From a virus: a DNA stretch of 47,784 nt. The position numbers and the translations under genes are program-made. Shown here piece by piece: positions 3,926 to 42,620 of this stretch (positions are counted from its first letter, which is position 1; the number at the start of each line of letters is the position of its first letter). Location of the stretch: the UHGV virus genome UHGV-1372857; one strand, 5' to 3'. The notes beneath the pieces are model-generated. The model had not been told where the DNA came from, did no database searches, and worked only from the letters and a program-made list of their open reading frames with translations.

Positions 3926-4342
3926 TCATTCATCAAGCCCAAAATAGAATAACGTCGCTCTTTTTATCTCCTCAAGACCATAAGCAATAGCGCCAAAGTG
4001 ACCCTCTGCAATGGCGCACTCAAGAACCTCAATCTGCGATGGCGATACCTTTGATTTTGTCTTATCACGCCTCTTCAGCTCAATCAGGCCGCATTTATGA
4101 TTAATGCCGTGAGTTAGTATCACATTGTCGCTTACTCCGCTCCTGACGCCCATTTTTCGGCGTTTTTCGATGAATTGCGGCCCGCTCTTTGTTCCAGTTT
4201 CGTTAGGCACATGAAACCACAGGGCTTCAGGGAATCGGTATTGCATCCACAGACCATACGCCATCTGGTCAGTGCCTTCCAGCGGACATTCACCGCGATA
4301 ACCGCTATCAAATACCCATATTCCACTATCAAGCTGCTTCAA
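3926..4342 (-). CDS. VRR-NUC domain nuclease
   Basis: HVPNE…GVRSGVSDNVIL…GLIELKRRDKTKSKVSPSQ fits the VRR-NUC (PD-(D/E)XK) signature. 138 aa. Confidence 0.75.
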   Translation of the reverse strand: MKQLDSGIWVFDSGYRGECPLEGTDQMAYGLWMQYRFPEALWFHVPNETGTKSGPQFIEKRRKMGVRSGVSDNVILTHGINHKCGLIELKRRDKTKSKVSPSQIEVLECAIAEGHFGAIAYGLEEIKRATLFYFGLDE

Positions 4343-6287
4343 TTTGTTCTCCTATGAAATCCTTGCGGTGGATGATATCGCGGCCTTTATCGTTAAAGCG
4401 ATGCGTGATGCGCTTAGGCGCGCGGATTAAACCGGAGTAATGCATGAAAGTCTTCGCATCATGGCAGTCCATCATTTTCTTCAGCATGGACTTATCTTCA
4501 AGATGAGGAAGCAGAGCCTTCATTTTAAACATGTCACGCAGGTGCTTTGGCTTGCCTCCGAACGGATAAAATACCTCATTTGCCCAGCCGGTCTTTCCAT
4601 CAGCTTTCACCACCAGGTAACGATAAAGAACCCCTTCAGCGTCTTTGGTCAACTCGACCTTAAAATCTTGCACATCTGTCCATTCCTTATCGGTATAAGC
4701 GCGCTCATTAAGCGCCGCATTAGGGTCGCGCAAAACGTGATCGCATTGACGGCAGTAACGAGCTGTCGGGTCGTTTTTTGTGCCGCAACCATCATCAAAA
4801 ATACGGATGCCGTGCTTGTCGAAACCGCAGCGAATGAAGCTGAAAAACTCTTCGCATCGTCCGTCTGGCGACGTTGAGTCTTTACCGATGCAACGCCGTG
4901 CATATGGGCTGTTCATCGTCTGGCATTTAGGGCATGGCACCTGCTCTCCGCTGCGCTTGGCGCGCTGTGCTTCTGCTTCCTCAAGAATAGGGTCTTCGTA
5001 CAGACCGCCAAGCTCAAACATGGTTCCGGTGAAGTCAAGGCAAAGATGGTTTTCTTTCACCAGACCTGCGGCAATCTGCTCAGGCTTTAAAAGGCGCATT
5101 GGTCGGCCAAGCAACTGCGTCAGAAGCGTCAGGGACATAATTTTTCTCAGGATGACAGAAGTATCCCAATATGGGATGTTGACGCCAGTAGTGAGGCAGC
5201 CGATTTGCAGCGTGTATTTTTTACGCCCGGTGGCCGCATCTTTCAGTGCTTTCCGTCTGGCTTTCTGCCCCATATCCTCGGTAACAATGGAATAACTGCC
5301 TTCTGGTAAGTATTTTGCAGCCTCCTTGCAATGTTTTTTACCGGCGCAGGTAATGAGCACACCGAGTCTGTCGCGCGTAAGTTCCATGACTTTGAGCATG
5401 ATTTTTTGTGTCAACGTACCCTGCTTAAGGATTTCTTCCTGCATCTCCTTTAGCTGGCTATCAGTAAAGTCCTGCACGCCGTCAACATCACTACTGGCAA
5501 ACTCATGCAGATCGTATTGCAAGTCCTCGATATCCTGCCCGCCAAAAATTGTCGGCACCAGAAAACCAAGGTCGACAAGGTATTTCGTGCTGATGTTGAC
5601 TATTTCGTGCTTCCAGTAAGCTCCCTTGATCGACTCAACGCCGCGAAATGGGCTTCCTGTGTAGCCAATGACAATCACCTCATGACCATATTTCGCTTTA
5701 CAGCGCCGGTTAAGTTCATTCATGATGACACCGTACTGCGTCTCTGGTTGCTCTGATATTATGTCCTGCCAGTTAACCTGATGGCATTCATCAACCAGTA
5801 TGTAGCGCGGGGAAAAGTCTGATAACAGTGATTTCGTCACAGTGCCATCATCGGCTGCCTTATCAAAAAGACCATTTATTATTGTGCCCTCCGTTCCCGC
5901 GATAAGCGGATAGGCATATGCCTTACGCCCAAGTGAAGCGCTAAACAGAGAGTTTTTTACGCTCAGATTCCAGAGTTCCTCTGCATCCTGCTCAATAATT
6001 TCGCCTTGTCGCGCGATGACAAGCCCCTCCCAACCCATATCCTGAAACCGACGGGCAATCATGGCTATCATGATGGTCTTACCGGCGCCAACTGAAGCGG
6101 TAACATAACTTGGCTTTGGCTGCTTACCAAACTTGCGGATAACCTCTGCTGTCTTTTCATATACCAGCCACTGATAGGGGCGCGGTTCAATTTCCCCGGT
6201 ATGGATGCTGGCCCGCAGCTTATCCATATCCAGCTCAGCAATCATTGCATCAATTTTTTGCACTTCATCCACCTTTGTGTTGCTCAA
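4329..6287 (-). CDS. superfamily-2 DNA helicase (DEAH/DECH box) with a C-terminal Cys-rich zinc-binding domain
   Basis: Walker A SVGAGKT and DECH (LVDECHQV) motifs, with a Cys-cluster C-terminus (CPKCQ…CRQCDH). ORF-track start 6287 is a TTG; the true start may be an internal ATG or GTG. Confidence 0.8.
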   Translation of the reverse strand: MSNTKVDEVQKIDAMIAELDMDKLRASIHTGEIEPRPYQWLVYEKTAEVIRKFGKQPKPSYVTASVGAGKTIMIAMIARRFQDMGWEGLVIARQGEIIEQDAEELWNLSVKNSLFSASLGRKAYAYPLIAGTEGTIINGLFDKAADDGTVTKSLLSDFSPRYILVDECHQVNWQDIISEQPETQYGVIMNELNRRCKAKYGHEVIVIGYTGSPFRGVESIKGAYWKHEIVNISTKYLVDLGFLVPTIFGGQDIEDLQYDLHEFASSDVDGVQDFTDSQLKEMQEEILKQGTLTQKIMLKVMELTRDRLGVLITCAGKKHCKEAAKYLPEGSYSIVTEDMGQKARRKALKDAATGRKKYTLQIGCLTTGVNIPYWDTSVILRKIMSLTLLTQLLGRPMRLLKPEQIAAGLVKENHLCLDFTGTMFELGGLYEDPILEEAEAQRAKRSGEQVPCPKCQTMNSPYARRCIGKDSTSPDGRCEEFFSFIRCGFDKHGIRIFDDGCGTKNDPTARYCRQCDHVLRDPNAALNERAYTDKEWTDVQDFKVELTKDAEGVLYRYLVVKADGKTGWANEVFYPFGGKPKHLRDMFKMKALLPHLEDKSMLKKMMDCHDAKTFMHYSGLIRAPKRITHRFNDKGRDIIHRKDFIGEQIEAA

Positions 6288-6337: not shown

Positions 6338-7231
6338 ATGCGATACGACTGGAAGGATATAGAGCCTTTAATGGTAGGAAACTGGCAGGCTGCCATCATG
6401 TCGATAGTTAATGTCGACATGAGAATTTTCAATGGTAAACATCAGCCATGTCCAAGTTGCGCTGGTAAGGACAGGTTTAGATTCGATGACCACTTAGACT
6501 ACAAAGGTGACGGCGGCGCCATCTGCAACCAGTGCGGAAACGGTAGCGGCATCACCTGGCTAATGAAGCTGTCAGGAATGACGTTTCCAGAGTCAATGGA
6601 GGCACTGGCCGGATTTCTGAATATGCACCCACGCGAAAAACTTGAGGCTATTAGAAAGCAACTTCCGAAGGTCAACCATGCTTCTGACTACCTGACAGAG
6701 GCAGAAGTGGCGGCCATCATGGAAAAAGCAGGAGGCGACACCATAACCGGAAAAACTGGTGAACTGGTGGCGATACCGCTGTATATGGCTGGAACAATGA
6801 CGCCATGCAATGTGGCATTCATTGCTGACGATGAAAGCGTGTCATTTCGCGCGGGCTTTAGCCATGAGTACACTCGCGGAAGACTTACGCGCGGCGCAGT
6901 GACACCCATCGGCGATAATTCGGAGTGGACATACCTGGTTGCGGATTACTTCGACGCCTGGCGATCGCATCGGCTTACAGGTGCTCATGTCTGGTGTTGC
7001 TGGTCGCCGGAAAATATGTGGGAAGTTGTGCGCAATGTGAGAGATGAACAGCGAGCTAAACTTCGCTGCATCATTAATAATAATTTCGACGAAGTATGCG
7101 CCGCCGAGAATGCTGGCCTTCCGATACTGATTACTGATGACGGGCAGGATATCCGTTACAGCGGCGCCATCAGAAAAAGGCTGTATAAACCAGAAGAGCT
7201 ATTTGAAGCACTAAAAAATGAACCCTCCTGA
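6338..7231 (+). CDS. DNA primase (N-terminal primase zinc-ribbon CPSCAGKDRFRFDD…CNQCG plus catalytic domain)
   Basis: Zn-ribbon of the primase-helicase type. Lone plus-strand gene inside the minus replication module, followed by a terminator. 297 aa. Confidence 0.6.
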   Translation: MRYDWKDIEPLMVGNWQAAIMSIVNVDMRIFNGKHQPCPSCAGKDRFRFDDHLDYKGDGGAICNQCGNGSGITWLMKLSGMTFPESMEALAGFLNMHPREKLEAIRKQLPKVNHASDYLTEAEVAAIMEKAGGDTITGKTGELVAIPLYMAGTMTPCNVAFIADDESVSFRAGFSHEYTRGRLTRGAVTPIGDNSEWTYLVADYFDAWRSHRLTGAHVWCCWSPENMWEVVRNVRDEQRAKLRCIINNNFDEVCAAENAGLPILITDDGQDIRYSGAIRKRLYKPEELFEALKNEPS

Positions 7232-7245
7232 TGGAGGGTTTTTGT
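7221..7245 (+). terminator. rho-independent terminator of the primase gene (CCCTCC tgat GGAGGG ttttt)
   Basis: 6-bp stem overlapping the primase stop codon, followed by a T-run. Confidence 0.6.
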
Positions 7246-7432
7246 TATCGTATCATCAACTTTCTTATATCCACACTTCCAGAAAGATGACGATGCCAGT
7301 AACTATCAATAACGTGATAGTTTGATATTAACCAGCAGCCGTGCAATTTACTCCAGAAAAACCAAACACTCCAACCATAAGGCCTAAAATGATATGCGCC
7401 TTCTGACCTTACTAAGTAACCTTTTATCTTCA

Positions 7433-8986
7433 TCATTTAAGCCTCGGATTCAGGTAAACAGTGTTATTGAGGAATACGCAATATCCATCCTCTTCAAGAG
7501 ACGGCAAAACGTTTGACTTTAGTCTGTCATAAATATGCGGTATGCCCTTGAATGGTCTAACGTTTTTTAGTGAATCATACAGCCATTTCACCGTGACATT
7601 TGTCTTTCCTTTTTGCGCAGCTGTTCGCAATTTTTCAGCAACAACGTCTATTTCTGATTTCTCGCCAGCGTATCCATTTGACTCAACGGCATCGGTAAAT
7701 GTTTTTGTTAGTGCATCATAAACGCTTATGGCGCGGCTTATGTGCTCCTCACCAATAATTTTTGAGCGACGACCACCATCGCACCAGTTTTCAGCGGCAT
7801 GGAATATTGCCGAAAGCCTGATTATTTGTTTGTCAGCCTTACCCATGGCGCCACGAAGCAAAACGTGATCCCATTTACCACCTGGCAGGAAATTCTTTTC
7901 CCACTGGTTTCGTAAAAGTCCAATCATACGCTGCGATTCTTTAGCGAGGGATAAAACAACCTTCTCAGAAGCCACAAGGTTATGCACAAATCTGGCATAT
8001 TCGGCTTTTAATTCTTTCGGCATTGGTTTGCTTACCGGGCAATCATTTTCCACATCCCAATGCTCACGATAACCCAACATTGACTGCTCACGAAGCATCA
8101 GGAATCGCTCTGACAATCCATTACCCCTGTCGCCAGCCGAAAGAATGGCATCAATACTTTCATCCTGCGCAATGACGCTGATGTTACCAAGCACATAGCC
8201 AGATGAAACACCACGACCAACGCGAGCTGAACCAACAAACCCGCCATCCCAGCCTTTAAGGATGACTTCGGCGTTAGACTTTCCTCCATCCTTGCCATAC
8301 GAAAGTCCAAGACAGGTATTTAAAACGCTTGCCTCATCACTTATCAGGTTGAAAAAACCACCCTCATGAATTGCCTGGTGCTGCACAGCTTCTGGCGTTG
8401 CATCGGTTAACGGGTAGGTGATGGTGTAAAGACTTTCCAGCTTTTCCTTCTCTTTCGCAATGTCATCTCCAATGATGGCCTTCGCGTTCTGATTCGTCGC
8501 TTCCTTGTAAGCCTTCATCAGGTCTTCAATGCGAATGTTTATCTTTACAATTTCCTTCTCCATCTTTTTTGACAGGTTGTCATACTCAATTTTTATCGGG
8601 TTCATATGCATTGAGTTGATGGCTGTCTTGCCAGCTGATGGCGGCTGCGACGTCACCACATACAAGGAAACAGGCAATTCAGAACCGTAGTATTCAACGC
8701 TAAAATTTCTCGTCATGGCACTTGCTACGCAGCCAAGCAGGTGCATGAATGACGTGCTAACTGGGAATTGCACAGCCCTTGCCGCTGCAACTGAATATCG
8801 CGTTATCAGGTCTTTCCTGTTGTCGCTGGTAAGCTCTATCTCCGAATATGTTACATCCTTCTCCTGTCCTTCCTTGATTTCCGGCCACATGTTATGGCTT
8901 GGTGTCATGCCATGATGAATGGCTACACGAGCCGCAGAGGTGTGCGCCTCTCTTGCCTGGTTGAATATTTCCTGTGCTGTAATCAT
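7433..8986 (-). CDS. DUF3987-like replication protein (P4-type primase/helicase-associated C-terminal domain homologue; P-loop-like QPPSAGKT)
   Basis: 517 aa with a SAGKT motif. Positioned next to the primase and translationally coupled (ATGA) to the upstream AP2 gene. Confidence 0.4.
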   Translation of the reverse strand: MITAQEIFNQAREAHTSAARVAIHHGMTPSHNMWPEIKEGQEKDVTYSEIELTSDNRKDLITRYSVAAARAVQFPVSTSFMHLLGCVASAMTRNFSVEYYGSELPVSLYVVTSQPPSAGKTAINSMHMNPIKIEYDNLSKKMEKEIVKINIRIEDLMKAYKEATNQNAKAIIGDDIAKEKEKLESLYTITYPLTDATPEAVQHQAIHEGGFFNLISDEASVLNTCLGLSYGKDGGKSNAEVILKGWDGGFVGSARVGRGVSSGYVLGNISVIAQDESIDAILSAGDRGNGLSERFLMLREQSMLGYREHWDVENDCPVSKPMPKELKAEYARFVHNLVASEKVVLSLAKESQRMIGLLRNQWEKNFLPGGKWDHVLLRGAMGKADKQIIRLSAIFHAAENWCDGGRRSKIIGEEHISRAISVYDALTKTFTDAVESNGYAGEKSEIDVVAEKLRTAAQKGKTNVTVKWLYDSLKNVRPFKGIPHIYDRLKSNVLPSLEEDGYCVFLNNTVYLNPRLK

Positions 8987-9259
8987 TTAAACCTCATACT
9001 CGGTTGCAAATGATTCGTGTGGGTTTTCTGATAGCCACTTCTTGGCCTTTAAAACAGCAATATTTGCTTCTTCTGCTGTTTCGAATAACCCAAGATCATA
9101 CCTTTTTTTGAGAACCATTACTCTTGCTCTGAATTTTTTCGATGCCTTATGGTAATCAACGCCATAGTAGCCAGTTTTCGATTTTGGCGAAGCAACCCAT
9201 CTTGCACCACGGCCATTGTTTTTCATTTTTCGCTTCAATAAAACGCCATGATTACTCAT
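8987..9259 (-). CDS. stand-alone AP2/ERF-type DNA-binding domain protein (HNH-associated AP2 family), first gene of the leftward operon
   Basis: 90 aa with YYGVDYHKASKKFRARV…LGLFETAEEA, the typical AP2 pattern (YRGV..-..KWRARI…LG.F.T.EEAA). Confidence 0.65.
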   Translation of the reverse strand: MSNHGVLLKRKMKNNGRGARWVASPKSKTGYYGVDYHKASKKFRARVMVLKKRYDLGLFETAEEANIAVLKAKKWLSENPHESFATEYEV

Positions 9260-9717
9260 TTGCTAACCCCTCCCTTTTCATTCCCTAAAAAATACCACCA
9301 ATCTCCCCAAAAATCAACACCACTCAATTCAGCATGTTAGGGGCATCTGGGGCAGCATTGGGGCACCCTAGTTGCCCCAAACTTTTATGCTCTAAGTATA
9401 TGTATTATAATAATAATAGTAGTAGTTGGGGTAATGGGTAATATTATTATTCATATTATAGGTATTATTTTAACAATAAATTAACAAACTGGCGGCATTT
9501 TTATATATACAAGGGGATGGGTATCAAAATTGCCCCACTGCCCCAAAAATGTTAAATCCCTTTAGTGACAAGGATTGCGCGTGGGGCAGCACCATTCCCC
9601 AACGCCTTACCCACAGGGGTAAATTTTACCCCAGGCGGATTTATTTTCACCATCATATTGACGTAGATTGAGCGCCATCGTATAGTTACCACACCAACAA
9701 CAAAGAGGTGATGAAGA
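9260..9717. promoter_or_regulatory. divergent early control region / candidate replication origin
   Basis: GGGGCA/TGCCCCA iterons: three direct copies at 9340, 9349 and 9360, one inverted at 9373, two at 9531 and 9539, and GGGGCA at 9583. They flank a ~140-bp AT-rich tract (9383-9520). Contains a leftward TTGATT-17-TATTTT promoter and the rightward promoter at 9658-9686. Confidence 0.5.
9658..9686 (+). promoter_or_regulatory. strong sigma70 early promoter TTGACG-17-TATAGT driving the rightward early operon
   Basis: TTGACG at 9658-9663, a 17-bp spacer (tagattgagcgccatcg), TATAGT at 9681-9686, then RBS aagaggtg and ATG at 9718. Confidence 0.7.
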
Positions 9718-9933
9718 ATGGCGAAGATCTATAAGGCGGTAGATAAAAAGGATTCGGGAGCTGGTTACAAATGCTGGCTTTTAAATGATAAGGGTCTTGC
9801 AGTTAGTTATTGGCATCTTCCTGATGATGAGGAAGTTAAGGCAAACATGATTGCAGATGGTAGTTTTCTGTACTCAAGCACTGCAAGATTTAAAAATGAC
9901 GCCATCAATCCTGTACTCATCTCGGAGTGGTAA
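9718..9933 (+). CDS. hypothetical early protein (71 aa)
   Basis: First ORF downstream of the early promoter, with a good RBS. Confidence 0.55.
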   Translation: MAKIYKAVDKKDSGAGYKCWLLNDKGLAVSYWHLPDDEEVKANMIADGSFLYSSTARFKNDAINPVLISEW

Positions 9934-10121
9934 TCATGACCAAAGCAATCTACACACGCACTCAACTGGAACCAGAAATGGGCGCAGTGAAAGCGCAAAA
10001 CTTTATGATGGCGCAGGCAATGCATGCATACAGCAACGGTAAGCGCGTCTGTCGCGTTTTTAGTGGCGAAGGAAAGCAGAGAGTGCTTGAGCAGGTTATC
10101 GTGTCATCTGGTGGAAACTAA
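9927..10121 (+). CDS. hypothetical early protein (64 aa)
   Basis: Overlapping start, in operon. Confidence 0.45.
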   Translation: MVIMTKAIYTRTQLEPEMGAVKAQNFMMAQAMHAYSNGKRVCRVFSGEGKQRVLEQVIVSSGGN

Positions 10122-39235: not shown

Positions 39236-42150
39236 TGGCAGAAGAAGTTGGCGGCATTGTCTATGAGGTTGGCATGGAGGTCTCGGGCCTCACTGCTGGC
39301 GCCAAACAGGCTGAGGATGCACTTGACAGCATTGACAAGTCAGCACAGAACTCATCAAAAAGCATGGATAAGCTGGATGGTGCGGCATCATCATCTGGCA
39401 AAGAGCTTTCAGCCCTGGCAAAAATTGTAAGCTCCATTGATGCAACGCTGAAGGATATGGCTTCATCGTCGAAGACTGCCGCCAGTTCAGTAGAAGCAAC
39501 AACCTCAAGCGTCACTGGTGCCGAGAAAGTTATTGCAGCACTAAACCAACAGCTCGCACAGATGCAGCAGGCTCAGGTATCCGCGAACGCAACCGGCCTT
39601 GCACTTCAAAACTCAGTCAATCAGGTCACTCAGGCAATTCGCGCGCTTGGCGCTCAGTCAACTGAAACGGGTGGCTCAATATCTGGTATTGACAGGATGA
39701 TTGAGAGCCTTGGAAACCAGATCGCAATCCTCGACGAACAGGCGGAAAAGGGCGCAAGAAGTGCGGCGATACTGGCTGCGCAGCTTCGCGCTGGAGATAG
39801 CGCCACTGACGCACAGAAAGCAAAAATATCTGAGCTTACTGGCCGTCTGTACGACATGAAAAATGGCACCGAAGCCGCTGGGAAGTCCACCGGTAACTTT
39901 AAAAATATAATGCAGCAGGGTGGCTATCAGATACAGGACTTTATCGTTCAGGTTCAGGGAGGGCAGTCTGCGCTTGTGGCATTTAGTCAGCAAGGTTCGC
40001 AGCTGGCTTCTGTGTTTAGCCCCGTGGCAGGCGCCGTGCTGACCATCGCAACGGTTATTGCTGGCTCACTGATAGCGTCACTCGGAAACGGCAAAAACGC
40101 CGTTGATTCACTGAAAGAAGCCATAGCGACCATGGATAGCGTCGTGTCGGTTTCATCTTCTGGTGTCGCTGTCTATACCGACAAATTCGCCCAGCTTGCA
40201 AAAGCCAACTCAGCGGTAGCTACGCTGATGCGCCAACAGGCGCAGCTTGAGTTACAGGCAGCCCTGTCTAAAGTTTCAGCGGAAGTAACGAAAGCATCAA
40301 GTGACTTTATCGGATTTGGCGATTCGCTTGTTTCATCGCTTGGTGGTGGCTATGCCAGCGTGAAGCTTTTCAATGACTACATGTCGCAGCTTAATATCAC
40401 AACGAATAGCTGGACGGAAGCCATTAAACAAGCATCAGCAGCGGGCCAGGCCGGTCAGACGTCAATGAATGGCATGATTGCCACGGTAGGCGCGTTAGCT
40501 GGTAAATTCCAGCTCTCAGACCAGCAGGCTTTCGAATTTGCAAAACAGCTTTCTGATATTGCAAAAAACCCATCTGATGAGAAGCTAAAGGCGCTGATTG
40601 TCACGTTACAAAAAGTCAGCGAAGGAACATCCAGCGGAGCGGCAACGGCACGAGAGTATGCCAAAAGTCTACTGGCCATTGTAACTAGTACGGCTGATGC
40701 AACACAGCGCCTAAAAGTTTTAAAACAAATGACTGATGAGTTAACTGACTCTCAGGATAAGGCGTTGCAGCAGGCTAAGCAGACCCTTTTCATTGAGCGA
40801 CAGACTGGCGTAGAGAAGCAGAAGGCTCTGGCGTGGCGTGATGCTGAAAATCAGGGGCTGAAAGCCGGTACTCAGGCATTCCGTGACTATTACAATGTTC
40901 GCCTGCAAACCTATCAGCAACAGGAGAAAAATGCACAAGCCCTGAAGGATGAGCGTAGCGCGCAAAGTGCGGCAAACTCAGAGGCAAAAAAAGCAGCCAC
41001 AGAGCAGGAGAATATCGCCAATAAACTTGAACAGCTTCGCCAGAAGTCACTGCTTACCGCTGAAAGTACAAGAGAGCTTAGCCGCGAACAGTCAATACTG
41101 GCTGCTCAGCAGTCTCTTGGAAAGGGAGCCACTCAGGAGCAAATTAACCTCGCCGGGCAATATGCGGCTAAGGCATGGGATAATGCCAACGCGCTCAAGG
41201 CTCAGGCAGAGGCGGAGAAACAAAGGGTCGAAGCTGTAAAGGGCTTCGCTGCATTAAAATCGCAGACATCCCCAATGTTTGCCGTTGAAACAAATTATCA
41301 GAAAGATTTAGCAGCGCTCAATGCTTACGCGGTAGCTTACCCGCAAAAGATAGCGGAGGTTGAGCAGGCCAGAGCGGCTATTGAGGAGCAATACCGCCAG
41401 CAGCGTCTTGATGCCATGTGGCAGGAGTGGAGCCAGCAGAATGCGGCTACGCAAGCAGCAGCCGCTGCATTTGATGCTTTTGGGCAAACCGCAAGCAATG
41501 CCTTAACTGGCGTTCTGACTGGCTCAATGTCTGTTAGCGAGGCGCTACAGTCAATAGGGAGCACTGTGTTGAACGCTGTGATTAACTCATTCGTTCAGAT
41601 GGGCGTGGAGTGGCTTAAATCGGTCATCATGGGTCAGGTTGGAATGACCGCTGCATCAGGGATGGCAGCAGCTCAGGCACAAGTTATTGCAGCAGCCATG
41701 GCGCCAGCAGCAGCAATGACCTCTCTTGCTACATCTGGAGCCAACGCAATCCCTGCGCAGGCTGGCATTGTTTCCACCGTTGGTGTGGCTAAAGCAATGT
41801 CTGTTGCCGGGGCATTAAAGAATGGCGGCCCTGCGCAGGCTGGCTCAATGTATCAGGTCGGCGAGAACAACCTACCTGAAATCTTCCAGGCCAGCAATGG
41901 CAATCAGTACATGATACCCGGGGACAACGGAAAGGTTATCAGCAACAAAGACCTTACCGGCGGCGGCAGTGGCCTTGTGATTTATAATAGTGTGACAAAC
42001 TATACGTCATCAAACGTGACAACCACCGCAAAAGATAATGGTGACGGCTCTGTTACAATTGAGACTATCGTTGCCGACATAGAAAATGGCGGCCCTATTT
42101 CTCAGGCTATTACCAGCAATACCACTGCAACCAGAAGGGCAACAGAATAA
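39235..42150 (+). CDS. tail tape measure protein
   Basis: 971 aa, Ala/Gln-rich coiled coil throughout, with a hydrophobic Gly/Ala segment near the C-terminus. Confidence 0.9.
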   Translation: MAEEVGGIVYEVGMEVSGLTAGAKQAEDALDSIDKSAQNSSKSMDKLDGAASSSGKELSALAKIVSSIDATLKDMASSSKTAASSVEATTSSVTGAEKVIAALNQQLAQMQQAQVSANATGLALQNSVNQVTQAIRALGAQSTETGGSISGIDRMIESLGNQIAILDEQAEKGARSAAILAAQLRAGDSATDAQKAKISELTGRLYDMKNGTEAAGKSTGNFKNIMQQGGYQIQDFIVQVQGGQSALVAFSQQGSQLASVFSPVAGAVLTIATVIAGSLIASLGNGKNAVDSLKEAIATMDSVVSVSSSGVAVYTDKFAQLAKANSAVATLMRQQAQLELQAALSKVSAEVTKASSDFIGFGDSLVSSLGGGYASVKLFNDYMSQLNITTNSWTEAIKQASAAGQAGQTSMNGMIATVGALAGKFQLSDQQAFEFAKQLSDIAKNPSDEKLKALIVTLQKVSEGTSSGAATAREYAKSLLAIVTSTADATQRLKVLKQMTDELTDSQDKALQQAKQTLFIERQTGVEKQKALAWRDAENQGLKAGTQAFRDYYNVRLQTYQQQEKNAQALKDERSAQSAANSEAKKAATEQENIANKLEQLRQKSLLTAESTRELSREQSILAAQQSLGKGATQEQINLAGQYAAKAWDNANALKAQAEAEKQRVEAVKGFAALKSQTSPMFAVETNYQKDLAALNAYAVAYPQKIAEVEQARAAIEEQYRQQRLDAMWQEWSQQNAATQAAAAAFDAFGQTASNALTGVLTGSMSVSEALQSIGSTVLNAVINSFVQMGVEWLKSVIMGQVGMTAASGMAAAQAQVIAAAMAPAAAMTSLATSGANAIPAQAGIVSTVGVAKAMSVAGALKNGGPAQAGSMYQVGENNLPEIFQASNGNQYMIPGDNGKVISNKDLTGGGSGLVIYNSVTNYTSSNVTTTAKDNGDGSVTIETIVADIENGGPISQAITSNTTATRRATE

Positions 42151-42620
42151 TGGCTATAGCTTACCCATCATGGCTACCGCTTGCGCAGCGTGCCAGCAAG
42201 AACATGACGACTCAAACCCCATTCCGCAGCGATCAGCCTGCGGTTGGGGCGCCAATATTTCAAAAGTTAACGACCGATGTTGCAGTAACATGGAGTTTGA
42301 CATGGGTTTTTACTCTGGAGCAAGACCGGGCTTTCATGCAGTGGTTAAGGAGTCCAAAGTACCTCAATAAATGCAACGAATGGTTTACAATGGATGTTGA
42401 TCTTGGAGGTAGTGGAAGACAAAAACAGACATTGCATTTTACTGACTATCCAGTTCAAACCAGCATCAATGGTGGCGTCGTAACATGGACAGGAAACGTG
42501 ATAGCAAAAACGTTAAATAATAGTGATGATGGCTCTGATGATATTATAGTTGAATATCCACCAAGCCAAAGATTGTGGCTCGATGAAATTGTTAACAGAG
42601 ACTGGCCGGAGTATCCATAA
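42150..42620 (+). CDS. distal tail protein (gpM-like minor tail protein)
   Basis: First gene after the tape measure, 156 aa. Confidence 0.45.

Follow-up and report, generated by a model that had tools for sequence, protein, structure and literature searches.

At the origin of phage lambda, repeats are bound by the phage initiator O, nearby transcription aids initiation, and the host polymerase is used. The Rep proteins of the pathogenicity islands found in Staphylococcus aureus (SaPIs) are self-loading helicases, whose C-terminal winged helix binds iterons of 5-6 nt that flank an AT-rich region in opposite orientation (PMC9371898). Helicases of the Pfam family DUF3987 have earlier been linked to the MCM proteins (superfamily 6), with a C-terminal winged helix and a predicted role in replication (PMC4889955, PMC5862659), and a distant member of the family, a PriCT-DUF3987 protein, has been shown experimentally to have 5'-3' helicase activity (PMC11724360). 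In the papers that we found, DUF3987 proteins are treated as replicative helicases and have been assigned no cognate origin. Here we describe the region at positions 9260-9717 of the virus genome UHGV-1372857 (47.8 kb, the whole of which is hereafter referred to as the window), which lies upstream of an operon for a DUF3987 helicase and contains short G-rich repeats on either side of an AT-rich tract. We judge it probable that positions 9339-9640 are the cis-acting replication origin of a portable replicon module and that this origin is bound by the DUF3987 protein, which would serve as both initiator and helicase. This assignment, which would conform to a classical design, is well supported by the comparison of related loci, if unproven.

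The region is bounded by an open reading frame (ORF) for an AP2-like protein (8987-9259, minus strand) and by an ORF of 71 amino acids (9718-9933, plus strand). The only ORFs inside it, of 40 and 46 amino acids, are both unconserved, and in the stretch beneath them the relatives have unrelated sequence of differing lengths. An annotation made earlier from the window (the original prediction) had taken the region to be intergenic, and that view holds. It had also listed seven repeats, all of whose positions and orientations we reproduced exactly: direct copies of GGGGCA at 9340, 9349, and 9360, inverted copies (TGCCCC) at 9373, 9531, and 9539, and a direct copy at 9583. The first of these had been written as TGGGGCA; the actual sequence at 9340 is AGGGGCA, an A rather than a T preceding the hexamer. 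Seven of the 19 copies of GGGGCA in the window thus lie within 303 bp (at 9340-9588), where 0.12 would be expected, a clustering with a Poisson tail probability of ~7e-11 (~2e-8 once window placement is corrected for). With the looser pattern GGGKHA we found 16 overlapping matches in 9338-9640, corresponding to about a dozen distinct sites, against 0.59 expected. Copies that had been missed earlier include TTCCCC at 9595, GGGGTAATGGGTAAT at 9428-9442, and TTACCCA at 9607, as well as a further palindrome, GGGGTAAA-T-TTTACCCC, at 9616-9632.

The repeats fall into groups, the outer of which are palindromes. The left cluster (9340-9380) consists of three direct copies, spaced 9 and 11 bp apart, and the inverted copy at 9373, and its last two copies form the left palindrome, TTGGGGCA-ccctagt-TGCCCCAA (9358-9380), whose pattern of two arms around a 7-nt spacer (N7) has no second occurrence anywhere in the window. 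Next comes the AT-rich tract (9381-9512), a candidate unwinding region, within which the half-site-like GGGGTAATGGGTAAT is conserved. To the right of the tract lies a right-inner group (9513-9546), composed of GGGGATGGGTAT (9513-9524) and the inverted half-sites at 9531 and 9539, whose polarity is opposite to that of the left direct copies, and beyond it is the right palindrome (9582-9601), TGGGGCA-gcacca-TTCCCCA, which is imperfect and has a spacer of 6 nt here and of 7 nt in most relatives. The outermost copies (9607-9632) are TTACCCA (9607-9613) and the palindrome at 9616-9632. The order of orientations is + + + - in the left group, - - in the right-inner group, and then + -. The tract itself has an AT content of 76 % in the best stretch of 140 bp, with 78 % for 9381-9512 and 80 % for 9390-9490. 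It had been described as more than 85 % AT, which is an overestimate, though it is still the most AT-rich stretch of 140 bp in the window, the runner-up being 68 % AT. We also considered a DnaA box at 9607-9615, where TTACCCACA is one mismatch away from the consensus TTATCCACA. This sequence is conserved among Roufvirus-type sequences, Macdonaldcampvirus-type sequences have TGCCCCAC instead, and TTACCCACA is better read as a probable variant of the half-site.

As judged by megablast, the closest relatives of the window are Roufvirus-like Klebsiella siphoviruses (pIS4-A, pYD38-A, VLCpiS13, and ZCKP8), followed by Macdonaldcampvirus (Salmonella phage Vi II-E1), Akiravirus, Shigella phage DS8, and IME207. 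Using the DUF3987 protein we fetched 26 loci from such relatives and aligned 22 distinct intergenic regions, which represent two genera. A single layout is common to the 27 loci: direct half-sites, a GGGGMA-N7-TKCCCC palindrome, the AT tract, a second palindrome group, and TTGACG-17-TATAGT. The groups could not be aligned with one another over the initial 60-100 nt that follow the small gene; the conserved core extends from the first half-site to just short of the -35 element of the rightward promoter. In the left cluster the columns GGG..A..TGGG..A....TGGGG.......T.CCCCA are invariant in the 22 relatives, and the AT tract has many positions that are invariant across the two genera, including TTGGGKTAATGGGTAAT. 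To the right of the tract the conserved order is GGGGAT, the second palindrome group, more copies of CCCCA, and the TTGACGTAGA box. Both of the 25-bp palindromes of Vi II-E1 are already annotated as repeats in its GenBank record (GTGGGGCAACCAACCTGCCCCACGA, on either side of the AT tract), and GTGGGGCAACCAACCTGCCCCACGA is the counterpart of the right palindrome of the window at 9582-9601.

The alignment also bears on the nature of the half-sites. Position 5, which is C or A, varies independently between the two arms of a palindrome: several sequences combine GGGGCA with TTCCCC, and others combine GGGGAA with TGCCCC. It follows that the arms are not maintained as a base-paired stem, and the pattern fits better with half-sites that would be recognized by a protein tolerant of variation at one position.

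The DUF3987 gene (7433-8986, minus strand) encodes a protein of 517 residues, a predicted P-loop helicase of the MCM-like type (superfamily 6) that ends in a winged helix, and this protein is our candidate for the initiator. The protein matches Pfam DUF3987 with E=5e-36 (125 bits as compared to a cut-off of 27) and a PHROG family annotated as DNA helicase with E=9e-195, and its invariant residues are K120 of the Walker A motif, E218 of the Walker B motif, and R294. In an AlphaFold model (predicted local distance difference test [pLDDT] score of 90), the C terminus (residues 442-512) has the order helix-strand-helix-helix-strand-strand that is seen in winged helices. When the model was compared by Foldseek with structures in the PDB, the top 34 matches were all members of the MCM family (MCM2-7 and archaeal MCM) or complexes with the ORC-Cdc6 loader. 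A search of PDB sequences with the protein gave no match, the Rep proteins of SaPIs included. Among the loci that have the GGGGMA motif, the DUF3987 proteins are 86-100 % identical.

Loci with more distant DUF3987 proteins have the same layout, that is, a small gene, the helicase gene, and, upstream, a gap in which repeats surround AT tracts, and in each group the motif is a different one. It is GGGGTR in the metagenomic contig L057 (DUF3987 identity of 64 %), GTGGGGA(A) in Pectobacterium phage Ymer (51 %), runs of five or six G residues (G5-6) in locus L061 (39 %), GGGCAY in Salmonella phage SB28 (35 %), where it forms GTGCCCAC-A6-GGGCAC palindromes, both GGGCGA and GGGCAA in loci L054-L056 (~35 %, and 70 % to SB28), and CGTGTCATC (also written as GTGTCATC) in Vibrio phage F18 (27 %). 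The motif of every group is either exclusive to its own intergenic region or at least 22-fold enriched there. In L061 (1059-1681) four of the G5-6 runs are on one strand within 55 nt, and a G-quadruplex is possible there, a feature that is not general in the other groups.

The relationship between motif and helicase is best seen by comparing Vi II-E1 with SB28, two phages of the same genus and the same host. By blastn, 83 % of the Vi II-E1 genome could be aligned to that of SB28 at 79-99 % identity (78.7-98.6 %), and the matched parts include the terminase, the structural genes, the superfamily 2 (SF2) helicase, the primase, and the rightward operon. Among six segments of more than 300 nt that are unmatched in SB28, the largest is a block of 2.9 kb (39271-42185 of Vi II-E1), which holds the genes that follow the primase terminator, the DUF3987 gene, the small gene, and all of the repeats. 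On the right it stops 4 nt short of the rightward promoter's TTGACG, and its left edge is marked by a terminator hairpin (39283-39318). In the GenBank record this hairpin is an unnamed repeat_region; it is a bidirectional terminator (AACAAAAACCCTCCGACTGGAGGGTTTTTGTT) that separates the primase gene from the helicase operon. Any protein that binds the repeats specifically would therefore have to be encoded inside that block. In the GGGGMA group the small gene upstream of the helicase is of three types and the gene downstream of it is of at least five, leaving DUF3987 as the sole phage protein of the block that is common to all and hence, by elimination, the candidate for the binder. The iteron and AT-rich architecture, which had been recognized as origin-like from the window, is thus strengthened by the relatives: as a cis element it is both conserved and exchanged along with a replication helicase gene.

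Could the repeats instead be the operators of a transcriptional regulator that acts on both divergent promoters, as in an early/late switch, and have no direct role in initiation? We regard this as a rather doubtful alternative, though one with several points in its favor. The region does lie between two promoter-like elements. The rightward one is a sigma-70-type pattern, TTGACG-17-TATAGT (9658-9686, plus strand), which matches the consensus at 10 of 12 positions and is followed first by GAGGTG, a Shine-Dalgarno sequence, and then by the start codon of the 71-amino-acid ORF, the ATG at 9718. The original prediction had pointed to this element, and as a predicted promoter it is borne out by the relatives: the TTGACGTAGA box is invariant in all 22, and a -10-like hexamer is kept at equal spacing. 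Palindromes of the form 8-N7-8 are typical of sites for dimeric regulators, and the center of GGGGTAAA-T-TTTACCCC is some 70 bp upstream of where rightward transcription is predicted to begin, a position of the kind used by activators. On the other hand, all of the repeats lie clear of the -35 and -10 elements, the motif is confined to this one locus in the genome, and a dozen or so sites around an AT tract of 130 bp exceed what is usually needed for promoter control. Moreover, the repeats change between Vi II-E1 and SB28, whereas the rightward promoter, which is retained where repeats and DUF3987 are swapped, the genes that it serves, and the other DNA-binding proteins of these phages stay 79-99 % identical. 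The outer copies at 9607-9632, which include the palindrome just mentioned, are within the block that is exchanged together with DUF3987. The swapped block would then have to include the gene for any such regulator, and the helicase alone is constant in it. The two accounts are in any case compatible, in that an initiator could autoregulate as well.

The original prediction had favored the AP2 protein as the binder of the repeats, either as an origin-binding protein or as an early regulator. The adjoining gene (8987-9259, minus strand), whose stop codon abuts the start codon of DUF3987, does encode a genuine AP2-fold protein, of 90 residues. Its match to Pfam AP2 (PF00847; E=1.3e-4, 22.6 bits) is below the curated cut-off of 33.3 bits, as is that of an 85-residue variant (E=4.9e-5, 24.0 bits), and its PHROG matches are to a stretch of the profiles of phage HNH endonuclease families (best E=2.8e-12). 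The AP2 signature is nonetheless readable in it as YYGV...FRARV...LG.F.T.EEA (the family form being YRGV...A.I...LG.F.T.EEAA). The model of the protein has three strands and a helix (E34-37, E42-49, E52-59, and H62-78) at pLDDT >80, and its best fold matches are the AP2 domains of Arabidopsis TEM1 (root-mean-square deviation [rmsd] of 1.1 A) and WRINKLED1 (rmsd of 1.1-2.3 A for the set), with E-values of only 0.13-0.26. A PDB sequence search with the protein gave noise alone. The family has 8 clusters in the protein collection. We also entertained the idea that the protein is a fragment of a local homing endonuclease, and found no similarity to the endonucleases of Vi II-E1 and ZCKP8. In the GenBank record of Vi II-E1 the AP2 gene (41510-41811) is annotated as a joined pseudogene; an intact AP2 ORF of 90 codons is present at 41510-41782, and its product is 83 % identical to that of the window.

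What speaks against binding of the repeats by the AP2 protein is the variability of the slot that its gene occupies. An AP2 protein (of 90, 85, or 82 residues) is encoded next to DUF3987 in 17 of the 27 loci, a 77-residue protein (type B) in 8, and a protein of 66-77 residues (type C) in 2. The gene thus heads the leftward operon in a subset of these phages only, and 10 of the 27 loci have an unrelated gene in the slot together with the same layout of repeats. In L021, a metagenomic type-B locus whose DUF3987 protein is 100 % identical to that of the window, the left cluster has 4 differences, none of which is in a GGGGCA hexamer or in the palindrome. Isolated phages show the same: VLCpiS13a and ZCKP8 have the 77-residue gene (type B) in place of AP2 and are not among the 25 phage records in which we detected an AP2 relative by tblastn, yet the repeat layout of VLCpiS13a is kept. 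Nor do the repeat variants (GGGGCA, GGGGAA, and GGGTTA) sort by type of cassette. The AP2 protein is therefore neither required for the repeats nor specifically associated with them. In its favor, apart from its DNA-binding fold, there are extra CCCC motifs that resemble inverted half-sites in the leaders of type A and of a variant, type A2, an example being CTCCCCAA at 9302-9309. Weighing both, we think it unlikely, and quite distinctly so, that the AP2 protein is the iteron binder.

By analogy with the repressor of plasmid pRN1, its nearest counterpart (PMC4234260), the most likely role of the AP2 protein would be to regulate its own, cassette-specific promoter in the leader at 9260-9338 (minus strand), a candidate AP2 operator. 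Each of the small-gene cassettes (in the window and in L021-L046) has its own leader of 60-100 nt, and its gene abuts or overlaps the start codon of DUF3987. Between one cassette type and another the leader of the window does not align, and the conserved core sets in exactly where it ends, at 9339-9340. It contains a Shine-Dalgarno sequence (~9266-9275) and a putative leftward promoter, TTGATT (9317-9312)-17-TATTTT (9294-9289), which matches the consensus at 8 of 12 positions and is under the threshold of the scan; the type-A leaders of Macdonaldcampvirus have TTGCAA-17-TAGTAT at the equivalent place. Over TTGATT-17-TATTTT lie two direct repeats, CCCTAAAAA (9283-9291) and CCCCAAAAA (9305-9313), 22 bp apart, and the type-B leader has two copies of TTGAATCAT, 21 bp apart, over TTGCAT-16-TATGAT. 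These leader repeats are candidate operators for the proteins of the respective cassettes. The type-A leader repeats CCCTAAAAA and CCCCAAAAA themselves include CCCC motifs that look like inverted half-sites. The type B and C proteins have no match in Pfam or PHROG; to the eye, their sequences have the look of small winged helices.

A third proposal, that the region is a packaging initiation site (pac) or a genome terminus, draws on a feature of the database records. In at least eight relatives (ZCKP8, ZCKp20p, ZC2, KpV2811, Akira, two IMG/VR contigs, and Pectobacterium phage Ymer), the record or contig is linearized in the AT tract, with ends at the equivalents of 9400-9490 of the window in L019/L020 (ZCKP8), L002/L039 (Akira), L028, L029, and L058 (Ymer). 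These break points, however, are spread over ~80 bp, and PhageTerm analysis of two relatives indicated headful packaging of permuted genomes with no fixed termini (PMC11769527, PMC9901506). The terminase genes are ~3.5 kb away and stay ~86 % identical between Vi II-E1 and SB28, whereas the repeats and the AT tract have been replaced. Breakage of assemblies in low-complexity AT DNA is the likelier origin of the record ends, and we consider a packaging site very improbable. Finally, it is hardly credible that the repeats are a chance product of low complexity, which the statistics and the conservation exclude, or that they act through a nucleic-acid structure such as a cruciform, a G-quadruplex, or, at 9358-9380, a hairpin or terminator: a scan did flag 9358-9380 as terminator-like, its equivalent in some relatives is followed by a longer T run, and L061 has its four one-strand G5-6 runs, but the hairpin receives no gene transcript from its left side, a T run is missing from the right-hand palindrome, the arms mismatch at position 5 rather than showing compensatory pairs, the GGGCAY and GTGTCATC groups are unable to form G-quadruplexes, and an Rfam scan of 9000-10000 found no RNA family.

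Several observations weigh against an origin that is read by the DUF3987 helicase, and we set them out together here. The SaPI5 initiator PriRep (7ola_B) is in the Foldseek list for the DUF3987 model at rank 35, with E=0.017 and a template-modeling (TM) score of 0.21, which is a weak likeness. When we compared identity segment by segment between specificity groups, the divergence of DUF3987 was diffuse rather than focused on the winged helix, and the comparison singled out no segment as the DNA-reading part. In the T1-like phages KpV522 and tunzivis, the DUF3987 gene is in a co-directional operon, with no repeat cluster nearby, and in phage TLS a study from 2024 detected no repeats resembling those of an origin (PMC11447400). 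Because of these T1-like relatives and the TLS study, the coupling between DUF3987 and repeats is not universal in the family. (Nor did we find the origin layout beside the DUF3987 gene of a non-phage element, L062.) The conservation of the AT tract exceeds what a mere unwinding element would need and hints that the tract may have further functions. GC skew had been suggested as a check, and the global minimum of the cumulative skew is indeed at 9330; this, however, coincides with the switch in coding strand and is not independent evidence.

From the anatomy, enrichment, and conservation of the repeats, the co-variation of the module, and the folds of both proteins, we infer the following course of binding, melting, and initiation, and a role for the AP2 protein. 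Half-sites (consensus GGGGMA, with weaker GGGKNA sites) lie in two groups of opposite overall polarity around the conserved AT tract of 130 bp, partly as direct repeats about one helical turn apart and partly as 8-N7-8 palindromes. The DUF3987 helicase would bind the half-sites via its winged helix; direct copies 9-11 bp apart would place subunits on the same face of the helix, and the palindromes would suit pairs of subunits. Having assembled on both sides of 9381-9512, the helicase would melt the tract and load itself for bidirectional replication, and the phage primase (6338-7231) and the host DNA polymerase III would then complete the replisome. Experiments on the Rep proteins of SaPIs have demonstrated this logic. 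Transcription may aid the opening, as the origin would lie between divergent promoters, the cassette-specific leftward promoter and the conserved TTGACG-17-TATAGT. The AP2, type B, and type C proteins would probably control the operon from their own leaders.

We are evenly divided over a broader proposition, which is that the Roufvirus-Macdonaldcampvirus clade and distant siphoviruses (of Pectobacterium, Vibrio, and metagenomes) share a replicon cassette that is complete in itself, is exchanged as one unit, and consists of an MCM-like DUF3987 protein that recognizes its own origin and of the cognate G-rich/AT origin. The cassette would extend from the primase terminator to 4 nt before the rightward promoter. 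Its slot ahead of the helicase gene would be occupied by unrelated small DNA-binding proteins, one of them a bacterial-virus AP2 domain that may have been freed from the homing-endonuclease context usual for it.

Just downstream of the DUF3987 gene is a leftward ORF of 63 amino acids (7245-7436), and the leftward genes near the gap include an SF2 helicase (4329-6287). The slot that is 3' of DUF3987 (7245-7436 in the window) is a hot spot, with at least five unrelated genes beside near-identical helicases; the alternatives there (in the window and L021-L046) are of 63, 65, 77, 93-101, and 99 amino acids. A zinc-ribbon primase gene (6338-7231) is on the plus strand, within a replication module that otherwise runs leftward, and the same inverted arrangement of the primase has been noted in phage TLS (PMC11447400). 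We saw no DNA polymerase gene among the ORFs that flank the gap, these being the only ones that we looked at; T1 and TLS are reported to have no polymerase gene and to rely on host enzymes (PMC11447400). None of nine scanned ORFs flanking the region matches the Pfam families of O-like or P-like proteins.

In the T1-like cousins of these siphoviruses no origin has been found (PMC11447400). If the broader proposition is correct, the element described here would be part of the first defined pair of origin and initiator for a large group of virulent phages whose replication relies on the polymerase of the host, and it would represent a case from a bacterial virus in which a helicase of the MCM type reads the origin sequence directly. 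Such siphoviruses of Klebsiella, Salmonella, and E. coli are commonly isolated with phage therapy in view. A defined cis element with a single candidate initiator lends itself to direct experiments, including swaps among the GGGGMA, GGGGTR, and GGGCAY specificity groups, and an origin module would account for a recurrent mosaic boundary in these genomes. As for annotation, it would keep the AP2 gene from being labeled as an origin-binding protein or an early master regulator. Breaks within the AT tract are a tendency of assemblies of these phages.

How, then, does the locus compare with the systems that are best understood? Like the lambda origin and its O protein (and those of Stx phages; PMC7466680), it has dyad-symmetric repeats beside an AT-rich tract. 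The lambda origin, however, is inside the O gene and has its repeats on one side of the tract, whereas here the region is intergenic and the repeats are on both sides; and whereas O is no helicase and relies on P to bring in host DnaB, the candidate binder here is itself a helicase. The archaeal plasmid pRN1 resembles our locus in that the gene for a small DNA-binding protein comes first in the operon (the repressor ORF56, followed by the replication protein ORF904), and differs in having a replication protein from another family, in which primase and helicase are fused (PMC4234260). Position and leader repeats suggest that a small protein could control the operon promoter here as in pRN1. With the superfamily 6 DUF3987 helicases of other phages, the protein of the window shares the Pfam match, the Walker motifs, the MCM-like fold, the winged helix, and a DnaG-type primase gene nearby (PMC4889955, PMC5862659, PMC11724360).

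The SaPIs provide the most instructive comparison. The SaPI origin is immediately downstream of rep, whereas the region described here is upstream of the helicase operon, between divergent promoters, and is separated from the helicase gene by a swappable gene for a small DNA-binding protein and its leader. Unlike in SaPIs, the half-sites are partly in 8-N7-8 palindromes, and the helicase belongs to Pfam DUF3987 and bears a weak structural likeness to PriRep5. The SaPIs are satellites, whereas the element here is a virulent phage. Nevertheless, both have short repeats of 5-7 nt that flank a central AT-rich region, those on one side being opposite in polarity to those on the other (PMC9371898), both have an adjacent gene for an ATPase helicase of the hexameric type that has a winged helix at its C terminus, as well as a separate primase gene nearby, and in both the sequence of the repeat is specific to each variant of the initiator or, in our case, of the candidate for that role.

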